A program made the position numbers and the translations under genes. Of a stretch of 40,816 bases of DNA, positions 6,828 through 12,409 are shown in pieces. The notes under the pieces are model-generated. The model worked only from the letters and a program-made list of their open reading frames with translations, was not told the DNA's origin and did no database searches. Source of the DNA: a virus (taxonomy: Duplodnaviria > Heunggongvirae > Uroviricota > Caudoviricetes); the IMG/VR virus record IMGVR_UViG_2563366884_000001, positions 1 through 40,816 of that record; one strand, 5' to 3'. The stretch's first letter is position 1. Every line of letters begins with the position of its first letter.

Positions 6828-7722
6828 TGGCAACCTCCAGTTTCGCTTTGCATTCTATGTAAATGGCTTGTACGTTCTGCTGCAATTTCATTCCAGATGT
6901 CAGGCGATATGCTTCTGCAAAATATCTCTTCAAATCATCCATGTTTTCAGCCTGAGCCATTTCATCACAAAGAAGTTGTGCTTTTTCCGTTATTTCCTGC
7001 TGGCGTTTCCGTTCATCTTCGCGGATATCTTCCTCTGATTTATGCGGCATAACTGGTTCAGTCCACACACCTTCTTCTTCGTTTAGTACGTGAATAGCAC
7101 TATCAAGACGTGATGCCTTAGGCCAATACTTGCTTGCACGCTTTACGACCGTCTTTCGCGCCATCTCATTCCAGTGATTTACCCATGGTCCTTTATCGCT
7201 GAATGCTGCCTTGCTTGTTTTCCTTACAGCCTCAATTTCAGCCAGACTCATCTCTTCCGTTAGATAATCACCTGCTGGCGTCTTAACTGTGCAGTAAACG
7301 CCAACGATATCACCACGATCACCGAAGGCGTTGTATTTATGGGTTGGTGCTTTATCAAGCCCGTTTGACTCATAGGTATCGTTAGCATGAACAAGTTTTG
7401 CCTGACCCCATGAGATAACACCAGACTCCATTGCAATATGGAGCAATCCCATATAGCTGATATCAAGGCAAACCATGCCATCGCGCGGAACCAGATAAGC
7501 CAGTTTGCTTGCAGGGTTTAAGGTGATGCCGATCGCCGCAACATTGATGATGGCGTTCTGTGCGCTGGTTGGATTTGCCAGTGCTGTTTTAGCCAGGTAA
7601 TCATTTTTCTGGAAATACTGAATTGCAAACTGGCTTTCCTTAGCCCATGTCACCGTCTGTTCAGTCAATGCTCCGCAGAATAACTGCTCCTGCTGTTTAA
7701 CGAATTCAACGATATTGCTCAT
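6811..7722 (-). CDS. recT: RecT-family single-strand annealing recombinase (303 aa)
   Basis: RecT-like motifs including KTVVKRASKYWPK; GGAGAAG SD; position in the early-left recombination module. Confidence 0.8.
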   Translation of the reverse strand: MSNIVEFVKQQEQLFCGALTEQTVTWAKESQFAIQYFQKNDYLAKTALANPTSAQNAIINVAAIGITLNPASKLAYLVPRDGMVCLDISYMGLLHIAMESGVISWGQAKLVHANDTYESNGLDKAPTHKYNAFGDRGDIVGVYCTVKTPAGDYLTEEMSLAEIEAVRKTSKAAFSDKGPWVNHWNEMARKTVVKRASKYWPKASRLDSAIHVLNEEEGVWTEPVMPHKSEEDIREDERKRQQEITEKAQLLCDEMAQAENMDDLKRYFAEAYRLTSGMKLQQNVQAIYIECKAKLEVASEQTI

Positions 7723-8030
7723 GCTGCTTCTCCATAAATGTGTCTGCGTTTGAATATTGCGAAGGCATATTCAGCCTTAACTCTTTCGGTTATTGCATCC
7801 CAGAACCATTCAGCGGCTTTTTCCTGATAGTTACAATCATCATCTTCCAGCCAGTCGATAGCGTCCTTAGTGTGTTCATCTGGTTTATATGAGCGAAGCA
7901 TTTCGCTTATTGGGTCGCAACGTTTGCAGAGGCGAACAACTTCACTGTTGATTCGCTCGTAATCTTCATCAGTAAAACTTGCGATTATTTGCGATATTTC
8001 ACGCTTATCATTCAGAGTCAGAATCATCAT
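7719..8030 (-). CDS. Hypothetical protein (103 aa) upstream of recT
   Basis: ORF with AGGAGA SD; stop overlaps recT start (ATGA). Confidence 0.45.
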   Translation of the reverse strand: MMILTLNDKREISQIIASFTDEDYERINSEVVRLCKRCDPISEMLRSYKPDEHTKDAIDWLEDDDCNYQEKAAEWFWDAITERVKAEYAFAIFKRRHIYGEAA

Positions 8031-8111
8031 CTTTCTCCTGTTCTTTGTGCTGATTGAGCATTTTGTTCATCTGACGAATGAATTCTTCGTCTGACCAGTT
8101 ATCTGTAAAAC

Positions 8112-8264
8112 TCATTTCCTGCGATACCACGGAAGGTTGATAGCTGATTTCATCGCTTTATTTGCTTCAAGCCACATTTTTGAATCACCAATAAATCTGG
8201 CTATTACTGCTTTGTTCTGTGCAGCACGAAGCATCTGGTGATTAATGGCTATTTCATTGCGCAT
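8112..8264 (-). CDS. kil: Putative Kil-like small protein (50 aa)
   Basis: Lies immediately downstream of cIII as in lambda; segment IARFIGDSKMW resembles my recollection of lambda Kil; below the ORF-track size cut-off. Confidence 0.35.
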   Translation of the reverse strand: MRNEIAINHQMLRAAQNKAVIARFIGDSKMWLEANKAMKSAINLPWYRRK

Positions 8265-8374
8265 AATAAGACCTCAACTCTTTTCCATCCGTCACGTAAT
8301 TTACTGGTGATTCGTTCAAGTAAAGATTCGGAAGGGCAGCCAGCAACAGGCCACCCTGCAATGGCATATTGCAT
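8249..8374 (-). CDS. cIII: CIII-like protein (FtsH inhibitor / CII stabiliser), 41 aa with divergent C-terminus
   Basis: MQYAIAGWPVAGCPSESLLERITSKLRDGWKR matches lambda CIII residues 1-32; AAGGAG SD upstream of this Met inside the longer annotated ORF. Confidence 0.8.
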   Translation of the reverse strand: MQYAIAGWPVAGCPSESLLERITSKLRDGWKRVEVLLCAMK

Positions 8375-8433
8375 GGTGTGCTCCTTATTTATACATAACG
8401 AAAAACGCCTCGAGTGAAGCGTTATTGGTATGC

Positions 8434-8461
8434 ATATAAAAAGGCCCTCACACTGGAGGGC
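8434..8461 (-). terminator. Putative rho-independent terminator (tL-like) between the 207-aa gene and cIII
   Basis: Hairpin GCCCTC-N6-GAGGGC followed on the minus strand by CTTTTTAT. Confidence 0.45.
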
Positions 8462-8577
8462 AAAGAAGATTTCCAATAATCAGAACAAGTCGGCTCCTGT
8501 TTAGTTACGAGCGACATTGCTCCGTGTATTCACTCGTTGGAATGAATACACAGTGCAGTGTTTATTCTGTTGTTAGT

Positions 8578-8605
8578 GCCAAAAATAAAGGCCGACTATG
8601 CGGCC
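8578..8605 (-). terminator. Putative rho-independent terminator overlapping the stop of the 207-aa gene
   Basis: Hairpin GGCCG-N6-CGGCC followed on the minus strand by TTTATTTTT. Confidence 0.5.
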
Positions 8606-9219
8606 TCGGAAGGAAGTCCAATCATCTTATTCAAATCTTCTACCCGTAAAGCAGGAAGTGCTGTACTTGCTTTATCTGCTTCTTTTGGTAGCAATTCTTT
8701 GCTTTCAGGCCAAACTTCAATAAGTCGCTTAACTGTTGTGACTGAGTTCAAAGCAGCCCATACATTTGATTCGATATCCTTTTTCTTGGCTTCAAGTTTT
8801 TGTTGCAATGCGCAGATTTCATCAAACCTTTTTGTTATTTCGTGTTCTGCGCTAAACATGCATTTATCTTTGGTCGGAGTAGGGAGCAATATATCTTCGC
8901 CGTTGCCGTCTTTCCCATATGAATGCCATCCAACCCTTCTGCCAGATACAGTCAGATAAATTGAAGTAGAACTAACATCGTATGAGTAAAATGAACATCC
9001 CATCTTTTCAAGTTCTTCACTTATAGCTACCAACTTGGATGATAACTGATCCACTTCCTCAGTTTTCTTTTTACCGCCAAACGCAATAACTCTGGCGTCA
9101 AGTGCAAGCTGGTTCTTTAACTTTGTTACTTCTTCAAGTTCAGTGAAAACCCCAGACTTAATTAAAGCGTTACGAGCGATTTCCTCTTTCATTCTCGTAG
9201 TTAAGCGGATTGATGACAT
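8596..9219 (-). CDS. Hypothetical protein (207 aa) between N and cIII
   Basis: GAGG SD before Met at 9219; no family recognised; occupies the lambda ral/sieB/ssb locus position. Confidence 0.5.
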   Translation of the reverse strand: MSSIRLTTRMKEEIARNALIKSGVFTELEEVTKLKNQLALDARVIAFGGKKKTEEVDQLSSKLVAISEELEKMGCSFYSYDVSSTSIYLTVSGRRVGWHSYGKDGNGEDILLPTPTKDKCMFSAEHEITKRFDEICALQQKLEAKKKDIESNVWAALNSVTTVKRLIEVWPESKELLPKEADKASTALPALRVEDLNKMIGLPSEAA

Positions 9220-9230
9220 ATTAATTCCTC

Positions 9231-9530
9231 TCAAATAAGTGGTTTGCTGCCTAATTTTATTTTCTGGCGACCAACACAAGTCACACCCATTTCACTGCGT
9301 GGCTTGCGGTAGTAAATACGGTTCTGTTTATGCTCGACTTCTTCTGCTTTCTTACAGCGAAGGCTTCCGAGTGATGCTGCTTTATCTGCTCTGACGCAAC
9401 CAGAGAGCTTTAGCGCAATTTTTCGCGCCAGTCGCTGCTCTTGCATTGCCTGTTCACGTTGAGCCTGTCTGCGTGCTCTGCGGCGATTTCTGGCGTTATC
9501 GTCAGCCAGATATGTAATGACTACTGTCAT
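9231..9530 (-). CDS. N: N-like transcription antiterminator (99 aa)
   Basis: Arg-rich N-terminus (DNARNRRRARRQAQREQ); C-terminus GVTCVGRQKIKLGSKPLI resembles lambda N C-terminus GITCSGRQKIKGKSIPLI; GGAGGT SD; first gene downstream of PL/nutL. Confidence 0.8.
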   Translation of the reverse strand: MTVVITYLADDNARNRRRARRQAQREQAMQEQRLARKIALKLSGCVRADKAASLGSLRCKKAEEVEHKQNRIYYRKPRSEMGVTCVGRQKIKLGSKPLI

Positions 9531-9637
9531 GTTGACCTCCGATGATTGACTTTGGCGGTGACGCGCCGGGTGCTTATCTTCCAGTTGCCGTCGTGCAGCT
9601 GCACTTCACGTCACCCCAAAGCCAACTACTCTTTGGT

Positions 9638-9678
9638 TCCCGCATTTCGGCGGGACAATCCCATCAATGTTAAAGAGC
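9638..9678 (-). promoter_or_regulatory. nutL: nutL: boxA GCTCTTTAACA (9678..9668) and boxB hairpin TCCCGC-CGAAAT-GCGGGA (9655..9638)
   Basis: boxA close to the CGCTCTTTA consensus; an identical boxA/boxB pair occurs after cro (nutR). Confidence 0.7.
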
Positions 9679-9699
9679 CTGCCAATCTGTTCCGTTTGG

Positions 9700-9800
9700 C
9701 TACCAGCGTCCTGCTGATGGCTTAAATTTAAGATCTCTTTAATTAATGGTCAAGAGTATTTTTGAAGAAAACTTAAATTTTCTTTCGTAACTTAAGTTTG
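9700..9800 (-). promoter_or_regulatory. PL promoter with OL operators (P22-type half-sites)
   Basis: Minus strand -35 TTGACC (9753..9748), 17-nt spacer, -10 TAAATT (9730..9725); overlapping ATTTAAG/CTTAAAT operator-like half-sites. Confidence 0.6.
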
Positions 9801-9815
9801 GCTTTGATTTTTAAA

Positions 9816-9845
9816 GGAAATAAAAAAAAGGGGCGAATGCCCCCC
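9816..9845 (-). terminator. Rho-independent terminator directly after the repressor gene
   Basis: Minus strand GGGGGGCATTCGCCCC followed by a 9-T run, abutting the c2 stop codon. Confidence 0.6.
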
Positions 9846-10496
9846 TTATGGAAGGTTTGCTAGTTTTGCATCGACAACTACGCCGATGATTTTGCAGTTT
9901 CCGTTGATCTCGATCATCGGATATTGTGGGTTAAGTGGTTTTAGAAACTTCCTGCCTGCATCAATAACTAACTTCTTGAAAGTTGCCTCGTTTTCTCCTT
10001 CGAGCTTTGCAACTACCAGTTTCCCGTTACGCGGCTCTACTTCAGGATCGACGAGTATTATCATTCCTTCAGGGATACTGAGACCGGCCGGAGCCGTCAT
10101 TGAGTCTCCCTTCACGTCCAACCAAAACGAATCTTCTGAACAGTCTACGGTTGTATCGTACCAGTTATCTATTGCACGCTTATGATATGGTTCTACAGCT
10201 TCCATCCAGCATCCTGCGCTCACCCAGCTAATCAGAGGGTATGACCCTCTTGGATCATGCCTACTGTGATAGGCAATGTTTGAAAGACTTTCCTCTCCTT
10301 TCATCAGATAGTCAGGGGAACACTTCAACGCATTAGCCAGGGCGAGAAGATTCTCTCCATTTGGCTCTGTCTCAGAGCGTTCCCACTGAGATATGGCAAC
10401 ATTAGACACGCCGACCATCTTTCCAAGTGCGGCCTGCCTGATCTTGAGTTCTTTTCTCCGAGCGCGAATGCGCTCTCCCATCAATTGAGTTTTCAT
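9846..10496 (-). CDS. c2: Prophage repressor, P22 C2-type (216 aa, LexA-like autopeptidase fold)
   Basis: MKTQLMGERIRARRKELKIRQAALGKMVGVSNVAISQWERSETEPNGENL... and C-terminus ...NGNCKIIGVVVDAKLANLP match P22 C2 along the full length as I recall it. Confidence 0.9.
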   Translation of the reverse strand: MKTQLMGERIRARRKELKIRQAALGKMVGVSNVAISQWERSETEPNGENLLALANALKCSPDYLMKGEESLSNIAYHSRHDPRGSYPLISWVSAGCWMEAVEPYHKRAIDNWYDTTVDCSEDSFWLDVKGDSMTAPAGLSIPEGMIILVDPEVEPRNGKLVVAKLEGENEATFKKLVIDAGRKFLKPLNPQYPMIEINGNCKIIGVVVDAKLANLP

Positions 10497-10576
10497 AGTT
10501 AAGACATCTTAAATAAACTTGACTTAAGATTCCTTTAGTGGATAATTTAAGTGTTCTTTAATTTCGGAGCGAGTCT
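10497..10576. promoter_or_regulatory. OR operators with divergent PR (TTGACT 10520..10525 / GATAAT 10542..10547) and PRM
   Basis: Three P22-type operator-like sites (e.g. ATTTAAGTGTTCTTTAAT at 10546..10563, AGTTAAGACATCTTAAAT at 10497..10514) between the divergent repressor and cro genes. Confidence 0.65.
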
Positions 10577-10762
10577 ATGTACAAGAAAGATGTTATCGAC
10601 CACTTCGGAACCCAGCGTGCTGTAGCTAAAGCGTTAGGCATTAGCGACGCAGCAGTCTCTCAGTGGAAGGAAGTCATCCCAGAGAAAGACGCCTATCGAC
10701 TGGAAGTCGTTACAGCTGGCGCCCTGAAGTATCAAGAAAGCGCTTACCGCAAAGCGGCATAA
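10577..10762 (+). CDS. cro: Cro, P22-type (61 aa)
   Basis: MYKKDVIDHFGTQRAVAKALGISDAAVSQWKEVIPEKDAYRLE... matches P22 Cro as I recall it; divergent from the repressor gene. Confidence 0.85.
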   Translation: MYKKDVIDHFGTQRAVAKALGISDAAVSQWKEVIPEKDAYRLEVVTAGALKYQESAYRKAA

Positions 10763-10769
10763 GCAAATT

Positions 10770-10813
10770 GCTCTTTAACAGTCATGGTCCTCATTCCCGC
10801 CGAAATGCGGGAA
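10770..10813 (+). promoter_or_regulatory. nutR: nutR: boxA GCTCTTTAACA (10770..10780) and boxB hairpin TCCCGC-CGAAAT-GCGGGA (10795..10813)
   Basis: Same boxA and boxB sequences as nutL, placed between cro and cII as in lambda. Confidence 0.7.
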
Positions 10814-11186: not shown

Positions 11187-11459
11187 ATGCGAAACAAAGG
11201 CTTTAATCCACCTGATACACACAAAGAAGCTAAGCGTTTGCGCTTCCTTCGTTCCATTGATGAAAGAACTCAAATCTCTTTTGTGAAAGTTGCCAGAACT
11301 GAGCTTCTGAAGGCTGAGGCGAGGGCGTTGCTCCCGTCTCTACCAAAAGAGGAGGGATATACGTTCATTCCAAACGCATTTCTGGAAAAGCTGATCAAAG
11401 AAGACATATCCGTAAGTCAGTTTAACGATGTTCTTAAGGTCTTTCGTCAAGGCAGGTAG
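11187..11459 (+). CDS. Hypothetical protein (90 aa) between cII and the replication initiator
   Basis: GAGGT SD before ATG at 11187; no family recognised. Confidence 0.5.
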   Translation: MRNKGFNPPDTHKEAKRLRFLRSIDERTQISFVKVARTELLKAEARALLPSLPKEEGYTFIPNAFLEKLIKEDISVSQFNDVLKVFRQGR

Positions 11460-11461
11460 TG

Positions 11462-12409
11462 ATGAGCAATACAGCAAAAATCTACGATTTCAGCGCCGCA
11501 CACGAGCGCAGGAGCAACAGGATGGAGAACCAGAAAACTGGTTACATTCCGTTGTACCGGAGCATTCTGAAACAGTCATGGGCGAAAGATGTTTATCTTC
11601 GCACCCTGTGGGAAAACCTTCTCCTGAATGCCGCCAGAAAGCCATACAAAGCGAATTTCAAAGGTCATGAATGGCATCTGCAACCCGGTCAACTGGTTGT
11701 GACAGCAGCTGATTTAGGTCTTCAGTTATGCGACAGGCATGGCAAGCCGGCAAGCCGTGATCAGGTTGAGCGGATGCTTCAGGTTTTTGTGAAAGAGGGG
11801 ATGATCTCCATTGATGGAGAGAAGCAAAAAGGTCGTGTGATCACCATCACAAATTACCATGAATACGCTCAAAAAATGGACAATTCCCCCGCACATGAAG
11901 CCGCACAAACAACCGCACATGATGCCGCACATGATGAAGCCAGTAATGGCGCGGCTTTCAGCGTACATGCCGCACATGAAAGCGCACATGAAGCCGCACA
12001 AACAACCGCACATCATGAACAAGAAGGTATTAACAAGAATATAAATAATACCCCCCTACCCCCCAATGGGGGAGGCGATGGGCAGGTTAAACCTGAACGT
12101 CGCAAGGCAGAACGAATCGACTACGAATCCTTCCTGAACGCCTACAACACCGAAGTCGGTGACAGGCTTCCACACGCTGTTGCGGTCAACGAGAAACGCA
12201 AACGCCGCCTGAAGAAAATCATCCCGCAACTGAAAACGCCAAACGTGGACGGTTTCAGAGCGTATGTCAGGGCGTTTGTGCATCAGGCCAAGCCGTTTTA
12301 CTTCGGAGACAACGACACGGGCTGGACGGCAGATTTTGATTACCTGCTGAGGGAAGATTCGTTAACGGGAGTTCGGGAAGGGAAGTTTGCAGACAGGGGG
12401 ATTGCATGA
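11462..12409 (+). CDS. Replication initiation protein (O-like / P22 gene 18 analogue) with internal origin iterons
   Basis: Position directly upstream of the DnaB-like helicase; contains tandem iterons encoding [10 protein letters not shown]-type peptide repeats; stop overlaps helicase start. Confidence 0.6.
11884..12040. repeat. Putative origin: about six CCGCACATGA iterons followed by an AT-rich tract
   Basis: Repeated (C/G)CGCACATGA(A/T)G units, including two 27-nt copies of CATGAAGCCGCACAAACAACCGCACAT, then ACAAGAAGGTATTAACAAGAATATAAATAATA. Confidence 0.6.

Follow-up and report, generated by a model that had tools for sequence, protein, structure and literature searches.

The 207-aa gene at 8596-9219 on the minus strand of the window (the whole stretch of DNA analysed here, 40,816 nucleotides) is a real gene and certainly an ordinary member of the Nmad5 family, which Pfam names "nucleotide modification associated domain 5" (PF18757; InterPro IPR040835). 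The gene is not new, as the family is named in Pfam and the exact protein is already labelled in RefSeq. For its role we favor, tentatively and at a little under an even chance, a non-essential early protein that assists phage DNA metabolism (replication, recombination, or nucleotide supply) and would act without catalysis by docking onto a conserved partner.

Family membership and distribution

The 207-aa protein matched PF18757 with E=1.2e-71 (241.5 bits, against a cut-off of 27). Residues 4-203 align with positions 1-206 of the 206-position model, which makes this a full-length, single-domain match. The protein also matched PHROG 1965, whose annotated function is unknown (E=6e-84), and it is 100% identical to RefSeq WP_001519588.1, "Nmad5 family putative nucleotide modification protein". 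These matches correct the first-pass annotation, in which the gene had been left without a family. NCBI and UniRef give the Nmad5 name to both close and distant homologues. Among 66 distinct close alleles pN/pS is 0.40; together with the strength of the Pfam match, this value rules out a chance open reading frame.

NCBIfam contained nothing that matched the 207-aa protein, and no PADLOC-DB family (0 at E<=1) did so. No match to the Ral family was found in Pfam, PHROGs, or NCBIfam, and no SSB family in Pfam matched. For characterised anti-defence proteins (Ocr, Gam, Abc2, Tad, Acb, and others) there was neither a Pfam hit nor a fold match in the PDB. The clear homology is to the uncharacterised Nmad5 family and not to a characterised replication or recombination protein. 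The "NMAD" domain reported for validated and predicted DefensePredictor defence systems was considered as a link to defence and set aside, as according to the supplements it is Nmad2 (PF18753) and not Nmad5.

An identical copy with the same annotation is carried by an E. coli FDAARGOS_1251 prophage that occupies the ybhC attachment site, and the gene was detected (at >=80% coverage) in 209 of 5,426 complete E. coli genomes, or about 4%. Copies with 97-98% identity are found in phages mEp235, HK542, and PhiR12_2 and in Stx1a-converting phages; phage Kapi1 has a collinear copy (Kapi1_018), and its record mentions an Nmad5 motif. Other members include mEp235 gp37, Pseudomonas phage M6 gp56, and CDS7 of the Dhillonvirus SM_A8. 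Of 50,697 phage records, 345 contained the family. When 1.84 billion representatives were searched with a profile, 2,306 clusters (50% identity) were recovered at E<=1e-3. Nearly all of these representatives are stand-alone proteins of 190-220 aa, and the hosts of the phages are Gamma-, Beta-, and Alphaproteobacteria.

The name of the family reportedly goes back to Iyer et al. (2013) and is said to rest on genomic association with DNA or nucleotide modification genes. We looked for a modification gene in the pL operon of the window and of the collinear phages and found none; across the family such genes are a minority of the neighbors. The association is one of context and not of sequence, and membership based on homology is therefore unaffected.

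Organization of the gene and the pL operon

The features of the operon and of the region upstream of it, from higher to lower coordinates, are as follows.

9846-10496: cI, upstream of the pL-like promoter and N
9753-9725, minus strand: pL-like promoter between cI and N (TTGACC, 17 nt, TAAATT; consensus match only)
9639-9678, minus strand: nutL-like site, with a boxA-like GCTCTTTAAC (9678-9669) and a boxB-like hairpin CCCGC-CGAAAT-GCGGG (9654-9639)
9231-9530, minus strand: antiterminator N, 99 aa, arginine-rich N-terminus (weak match to PF25694, N_peptide)
9232-9226, minus strand: Shine-Dalgarno site GAGAGGA of the 207-aa gene, read from the sequence
8596-9219, minus strand: Nmad5-family coding sequence (PF18757; PHROG 1965), 207 aa, with ATG at 9219-9217 and stop codon TAG at 8598-8596
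8578-8607, minus strand: G+C-rich intrinsic-terminator-like hairpin GAGGCCGCATAGTCGGCCTT (8607-8588) followed by the T tract TATTTTT
8461-8444 and 8423-8404, minus strand: two more terminator-like hairpins between Nmad5 and cIII
8249-8374, minus strand: cIII, 41 aa, the next gene downstream of Nmad5 (PF02061, Lambda_CIII, E=4e-20)
8112-8264, minus strand: kil, 50 aa, annotated as Kil in the collinear mEp235, Kapi1, and FDAARGOS_1251

The predicted protein begins MSSIRLT, and its ATG is also the start used by homologues and by PGAP; a mechanical list of open reading frames extends the gene upstream to a TTG at 9279, giving 227 aa. The Shine-Dalgarno site lies 6 nt from the ATG and overlaps the stop codon of N (TGA, 9233-9231), and the TAG of the 207-aa gene is located inside the loop of the terminator hairpin. 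The open reading frame, its good ribosome-binding site, and the terminator over its stop codon were thus read correctly in the first-pass annotation, as was the placement of the gene between N on one side and cIII and kil on the other. N is the immediate upstream neighbor in the same transcription unit, and PGAP labels the neighbor of the same gene "antitermination protein N". RecT is encoded downstream of cIII and kil.

We searched for a canonical lambda boxA (CGCTCTTA) near nutL; it is absent, and a P22-like GCTCTTTAAC with a hairpin is found instead. The nutL assignment is putative and follows the known architecture of lambda and P22 nut sites. A strong terminator after cI blocks read-through, and no promoter-like site belonging to Nmad5 itself was seen. 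Scanning from the pL-like promoter to the Nmad5 stop codon, including the interval between N and Nmad5, revealed no terminator-like site; the hairpin over the stop codon is the first one downstream of the promoter on the same strand. From this arrangement, immediate-early expression together with N, independent of N-mediated antitermination, is predicted.

Of 82 distinct related loci, at least 52 have retained the hairpin over the stop codon. Many E. coli prophages without the Nmad5 gene, such as those of E2348/69 and a prophage of DH5alpha, nevertheless share the 47 nt that include the terminator (8560-8606); such a block is typical of a module boundary.

Several other features of the region were noted. 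Three terminator-like hairpins fall within about 200 bp (8404-8607, minus strand) between the Nmad5 stop codon and cIII, and 11 terminator-like sites were observed in 7500-10800, against 2.8 expected. The cIII gene is short (41 aa), and its 3' end shares 16 nt with the start of kil. Neither of the two open reading frames between kil and recT (40 aa, 8008-8130; 103 aa, 7719-8030) belongs to a Pfam family. On the plus strand, 11459-12409 encodes a replication-region protein of 316 aa with a His/Ala-rich, near-repetitive stretch, opposite which lies a long, spurious Cys/Met/Gly-rich open reading frame.

The slot between N and cIII in lambdoid relatives

The view that the interval is a variable cargo site agrees with what we found in HK140 (locus L186, 2510-3505). 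Here ral and an opposite-strand sieB take the place of Nmad5, and the RecT/Gp157 module is 97% identical to that of the window, which makes HK140 a direct example of cassette exchange in the slot between N and cIII/kil. In DE3/lambda, ral and ea10 occupy the same region. In prophages of E. coli, Klebsiella, Serratia, and Providencia and in other lambdoid prophages, Nmad5 follows the repressor either directly or as the second gene.

Among the 106 loci of the E. coli-type group, 102 have an N-family open reading frame upstream in the same orientation, and in 58 it is the direct neighbor. The annealing protein encoded downstream in this group is of the Rad52 type in 30 loci, Erf in 26, RecT in 23, and Bet/Exo in 8. 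With four types of single-strand annealing protein, Nmad5 does not depend on any one phage recombinase. Mutual exclusion of Nmad5 and Gam, as an anti-RecBCD role would predict, was also considered: one 933W-like locus has an open reading frame preceding bet, which gave no Gam hit. Phage mEp235 has both Nmad5 and Abc2, which argues against simple redundancy.

The genes directly following Nmad5 vary. In locus L011 (6744-7763) and in 12-18 other E. coli-type loci, a 340-aa K/E/A-rich coiled-coil protein without a Pfam hit is encoded directly downstream; in other loci DUF2528 (122 aa) and other small open reading frames take this position, so the slot carries further variable cargo. The coiled-coil protein was considered as a conserved partner and rejected, as it shows no relationship to the 340-aa Eaa adjacent to Nmad5 in SPN3UB or to the PolA-module protein of ~300 aa described below. 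In 933W-like loci with Nmad5, a eukaryote-type Ser/Thr protein kinase (Pkinase, E=2e-46; locus L023, 3854-4897) is located between the repressor and N.

Genomic context across the family

For the survey of genomic context we used 175 loci, which form 29 clusters at 85% protein identity; open reading frames were called, the neighbors were clustered, and the recurrent ones were annotated. No neighbor is universal across the collected loci. In 11 of the 29 clusters, Nmad5 is part of a module encoding a ~300-aa protein, a DUF2800 PD-(D/E)XK nuclease, an SSB of the Enc34/T7 gp2.5 type, Nmad5, PolA, VRR-NUC, and an SNF2 helicase. The VRR-NUC is a probable assignment made by reading the sequence, as Pfam gave no hit. 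In two of these clusters, Nmad5 has left this place and now comes directly after the repressor. The 11 clusters probably represent one phage lineage and for this reason do not count as independent observations.

The protein directly upstream of the DUF2800 nuclease (~260-320 aa; L138, 3106-4077, and L092, 8794-9570) was seen in 10 of the 29 clusters and had no Pfam hit. One of the polymerases (L117, 9044-12148) has 1,035 aa, whereas those of its relatives have ~687 aa; the additional stretch (…CIAAGTPVLT … LIVHNCENV…) resembles an inserted intein.

Lambdoid loci make up about nine of the clusters and have Nmad5 as the first or second gene of the pL operon (E. coli, Klebsiella, Serratia, Providencia, and a metagenomic phage). 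N4-like phages encode PolA, ThyX, Nmad5, a PD-(D/E)XK exonuclease, primase, Sak4, and SSB. In some loci Nmad5 is located between a DEDD exonuclease and a dNMP kinase, with overlapping stops and starts; it overlaps ThyA in one lineage and follows a C5 methylase in another. In SPN3UB its place is the nin region. Two genes before it lies gp54, a queuine tRNA-ribosyltransferase according to the record, for which Pfam gave no hit. In Dhillonviruses, nmad5 is a lone opposite-strand gene amid the head genes. In M6-like phages, Nmad5 is located within the cassette for 5-NedU thymidine hypermodification, six genes before PolA. We considered whether the M6 arrangement is the DUF2800-SSB-PolA module with inserted hypermodification genes; PolA is present, but HMMs found neither DUF2800 nor an Enc34-type SSB, and we did not retain this weakly supported idea.

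Among 125 neighbor families that had not already been classified, a Pfam survey recovered C5 DNA_methylase twice and Thy1 once, and helicases, nucleases, SSBs, and regulators were dominant. We suggest that the name "nucleotide modification associated" fits a minority of Nmad5 contexts only. A Tad2-like gene (PF11195) lies directly upstream of Nmad5 in one locus (L182, 6451-6933), and a CAP12/Pycsar-type TIR gene lies a few genes downstream in another (L092, 14130-14888); defence and counter-defence genes thus share these early operons.

Sequence conservation and predicted structure

In an alignment of 149 diverse Nmad5 sequences, R5, I14, A18, K21, R43, G48-G49, and G93 are conserved (window numbering). 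The strongest conservation is found in the C-terminal quarter, at T162, K164, K/R165, L166, W170-P171-E172, E175-L176, P178, L188-P189, L196-N197, and I200-G201-L202-P203; W170, P178, and N197 are essentially invariant. The window protein has every family motif, namely LGG, G93, TVK[KR]L..WPE..ELLP, and the C-terminal LPA..V..LN.[LM]IGLP. In every case the end of the motif LN..[ILV]G[LIV] is 1-12 residues away from the C-terminus.

AlphaFold2 models had a mean pLDDT of 84.7 (20 sequences) and 89.5 (57 sequences). In the latter, residues 1-180 were mostly above 90, whereas residues 181-207 reached only 49-58 despite being the most conserved part of the sequence. The predicted fold has three long helices in its N-terminal part, a small beta-sheet, one helix of 32 residues, and short helices towards the C-terminus; in the model this combination of helices and small sheet contains no OB fold. 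Comparison of the model with the PDB returned no solved structure alike and no recognisable catalytic fold, and sequence searches of the PDB with two profiles gave coiled-coil noise only. The protein, of ~23 kDa, is predicted to be soluble: the maximum Kyte-Doolittle hydropathy over 19 residues is 0.61, and a transmembrane segment is absent. Its pI is 6.2, and the family median is 7.6. An invariant tail that the monomer model leaves unplaced has the look of a docking or oligomerisation peptide.

Function of Nmad5

Four lines of evidence point to an accessory of DNA metabolism: the constant size of the family, its invariant motifs, its wide host range, and its presence in replication, recombination, and nucleotide operons of unrelated phages. 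These wider contexts favor such a role over a function of the Ral or SieB type. As the second cistron of the pL transcript, Nmad5 should appear at the same time as N, as soon as induction or infection begins and ahead of any need for N to carry transcription through into cIII, kil, and recT. We infer that the C-terminal subdomain and the terminal peptide (TVK[KR]L..WPE..ELLP ... LPA..V..LN.[LM]IGLP) dock onto a partner that is conserved across Proteobacteria. The phage neighbors differ wholly by lineage and the C-terminal peptide is invariant, so the partner should be something that those phages share, most plausibly a core DNA-metabolism protein of the host, or DNA itself.

The published phenotype of the family comes from Dhillonviruses, in which a single nmad5 substitution (K216E in SM_A8, K296E in SMS22) gives escape from Tmn (PMC11846954). 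Deletion of nmad5 was tolerated by the phage, left its sensitivity to Tmn unchanged, and gave no escape; the gene could not be cloned and appeared toxic (PMC11846954). As deletion was without effect on Tmn, the wild-type protein is neither the sole Tmn trigger nor a Tmn inhibitor. In our alignment SM_A8 K216 corresponds to R165 of the window protein, a conserved basic residue just before WPE; 111 of the 149 sequences have a K or an R there. The location of the escape substitution speaks for the relevance in vivo of the conserved C-terminal subdomain, in line with the accessory reading. Weighing against that reading, anti-defence genes too sit in early DNA-metabolism operons, and synteny is indirect evidence; the lambdoid slot in E. 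coli otherwise holds ral and sieB, which fits cargo or anti-defence equally well. The conserved polar residues R43, T162, E172, E175, and N197 could form an active site, contrary to the proposal that the protein is non-catalytic.

The first-pass annotation had proposed, from position, an anti-defence or exclusion gene, and these two parts fared differently. That Nmad5 is an immediate-early product that neutralises or evades host immunity (nuclease- or NTPase-based, e.g., Tmn), by binding the system or its sensor, is in our view unlikely overall but deserves serious consideration. It would account for the slot shared with ral in HK140, the position as first or second pL gene in many lambdoid prophages, the moron-like setting of the lone gene in the Dhillonvirus head region, the Tad2-like neighbor in one locus, and the patchy occurrence in E. 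coli (209/5,426 genomes), and the K-to-E change that maps to R165 fits it as well. The unchanged Tmn sensitivity of the deletion phage (PMC11846954) counts against it, as do the conserved place inside replication modules and a family that is very large, of constant length, with invariant motifs, and spread over phages of Gamma-, Beta-, and Alphaproteobacteria. Dedicated inhibitors of host defences tend to be narrower in distribution and faster-evolving. A SieB- or Rex-type protein made from the prophage and acting in superinfection exclusion or abortive infection, as also put forward at first, would fit the slot shared with sieB in related phages, and yet is highly improbable. The protein is soluble, its position in the same orientation as N behind pL, with no promoter-like site and with a terminator after cI, implies repression in the lysogen, and the family occurs in virulent N4-like, Dhillonvirus, and M6-like phages; PADLOC also returned no hit.

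An enzymatic role in the modification of DNA or nucleotides, or an obligatory accessory role to such an enzyme, would explain why Nmad5 lies in the 5-NedU cassette of M6-like phages, why ThyX, ThyA or hydroxymethylase, dNMP kinase, or C5 DNA methylase adjoins it in several lineages, and why SPN3UB gp54 is encoded two genes upstream; the invariant polar residues are compatible with it. We nevertheless regard this as quite improbable. The pL operons of the window and its relatives are without a modification enzyme, those of Klebsiella prophages consist of Nmad5, Kil, and small open reading frames only, the surveyed neighbor families include few such enzymes, and the fold is not recognisably catalytic. 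Moreover, gp51-gp55 lysates served to elucidate the 5-NedU pathway of M6, purified enzymes sufficed to reconstitute its steps, and Nmad5 (gp56) is not among the pathway proteins (PMC8989533). A bolder version of docking onto a host protein, which we consider improbable, is that Nmad5 represents a new class of immediate-early host-takeover factor with an unseen fold, whose LN.[LM]IGLP peptide docks on a core hub of host DNA metabolism. The beta sliding clamp, SSB, or a repair nuclease would be candidate hubs, and docking would redirect or blind host DNA surveillance in favor of phage replication. The hexameric motif that binds the beta clamp is QLxLxL (e.g., QLVLGL in Pol IV), and we take LN.[LM]IGLP to be loosely like it. 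If true, docking on a host hub would account for the spread across unrelated phages, for the toxicity in cloning, and for escape from Tmn by a charge reversal near the motif.

The locus itself holds an ordinary annotated member at a site already known to vary, and such modest interest as there is belongs to the family. With ~2,300 clusters, Nmad5 is one of the larger groups of early phage proteins of uncharacterised role, its predicted fold is without a solved relative, and its sole phenotype to date is the gain-of-function escape from Tmn. The E. coli lambdoid copies (mEp235, HK542, Kapi1) offer a genetically easy route to the role of the family.

Comparison with known systems

The window protein resembles other Nmad5 members end to end: the HMM match covers the whole protein, a single domain of ~200 aa, all invariant positions are present, and identity to the copies in E. 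coli prophages and phages is 97-100%. The setting differs, being the pL operon here, the hypermodification/PolA cluster in M6, and the head-gene region in Dhillonviruses, and the Dhillonvirus proteins are longer (at least 254 aa, compared to 207 aa).

With Ral of lambda and P22, Nmad5 shares the slot of the pL operon between N and cIII/kil and early transcription. There is no relationship in sequence or in Pfam, the ral coding sequence of HK140 has 201 bp whereas Nmad5 here has 207 aa, and Ral is confined to lambdoid phages, whereas Nmad5 is found in many phage types. SieB of P22 and lambda occupies the same variable slot. SieB is expressed in the lysogen. In HK140, sieB is on the strand opposite to N; in contrast, Nmad5 is soluble, is on the same transcript as N, and is also found in virulent phages.

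The lambda proteins Ea10 (SSB-like) and Gam and the P22 protein Abc2 are early, non-essential pL proteins that aid the DNA metabolism of the phage through binding of single-stranded DNA or host nucleases. Nmad5 has no homology to them and lacks an OB fold. Phage mEp235 carries Nmad5, Abc2, and SSB together, and Nmad5 is therefore not simply an analogue that replaces these proteins. By analogy, we think that Nmad5 may work as pL accessories of the Ea10, Gam, and Abc2 type do.
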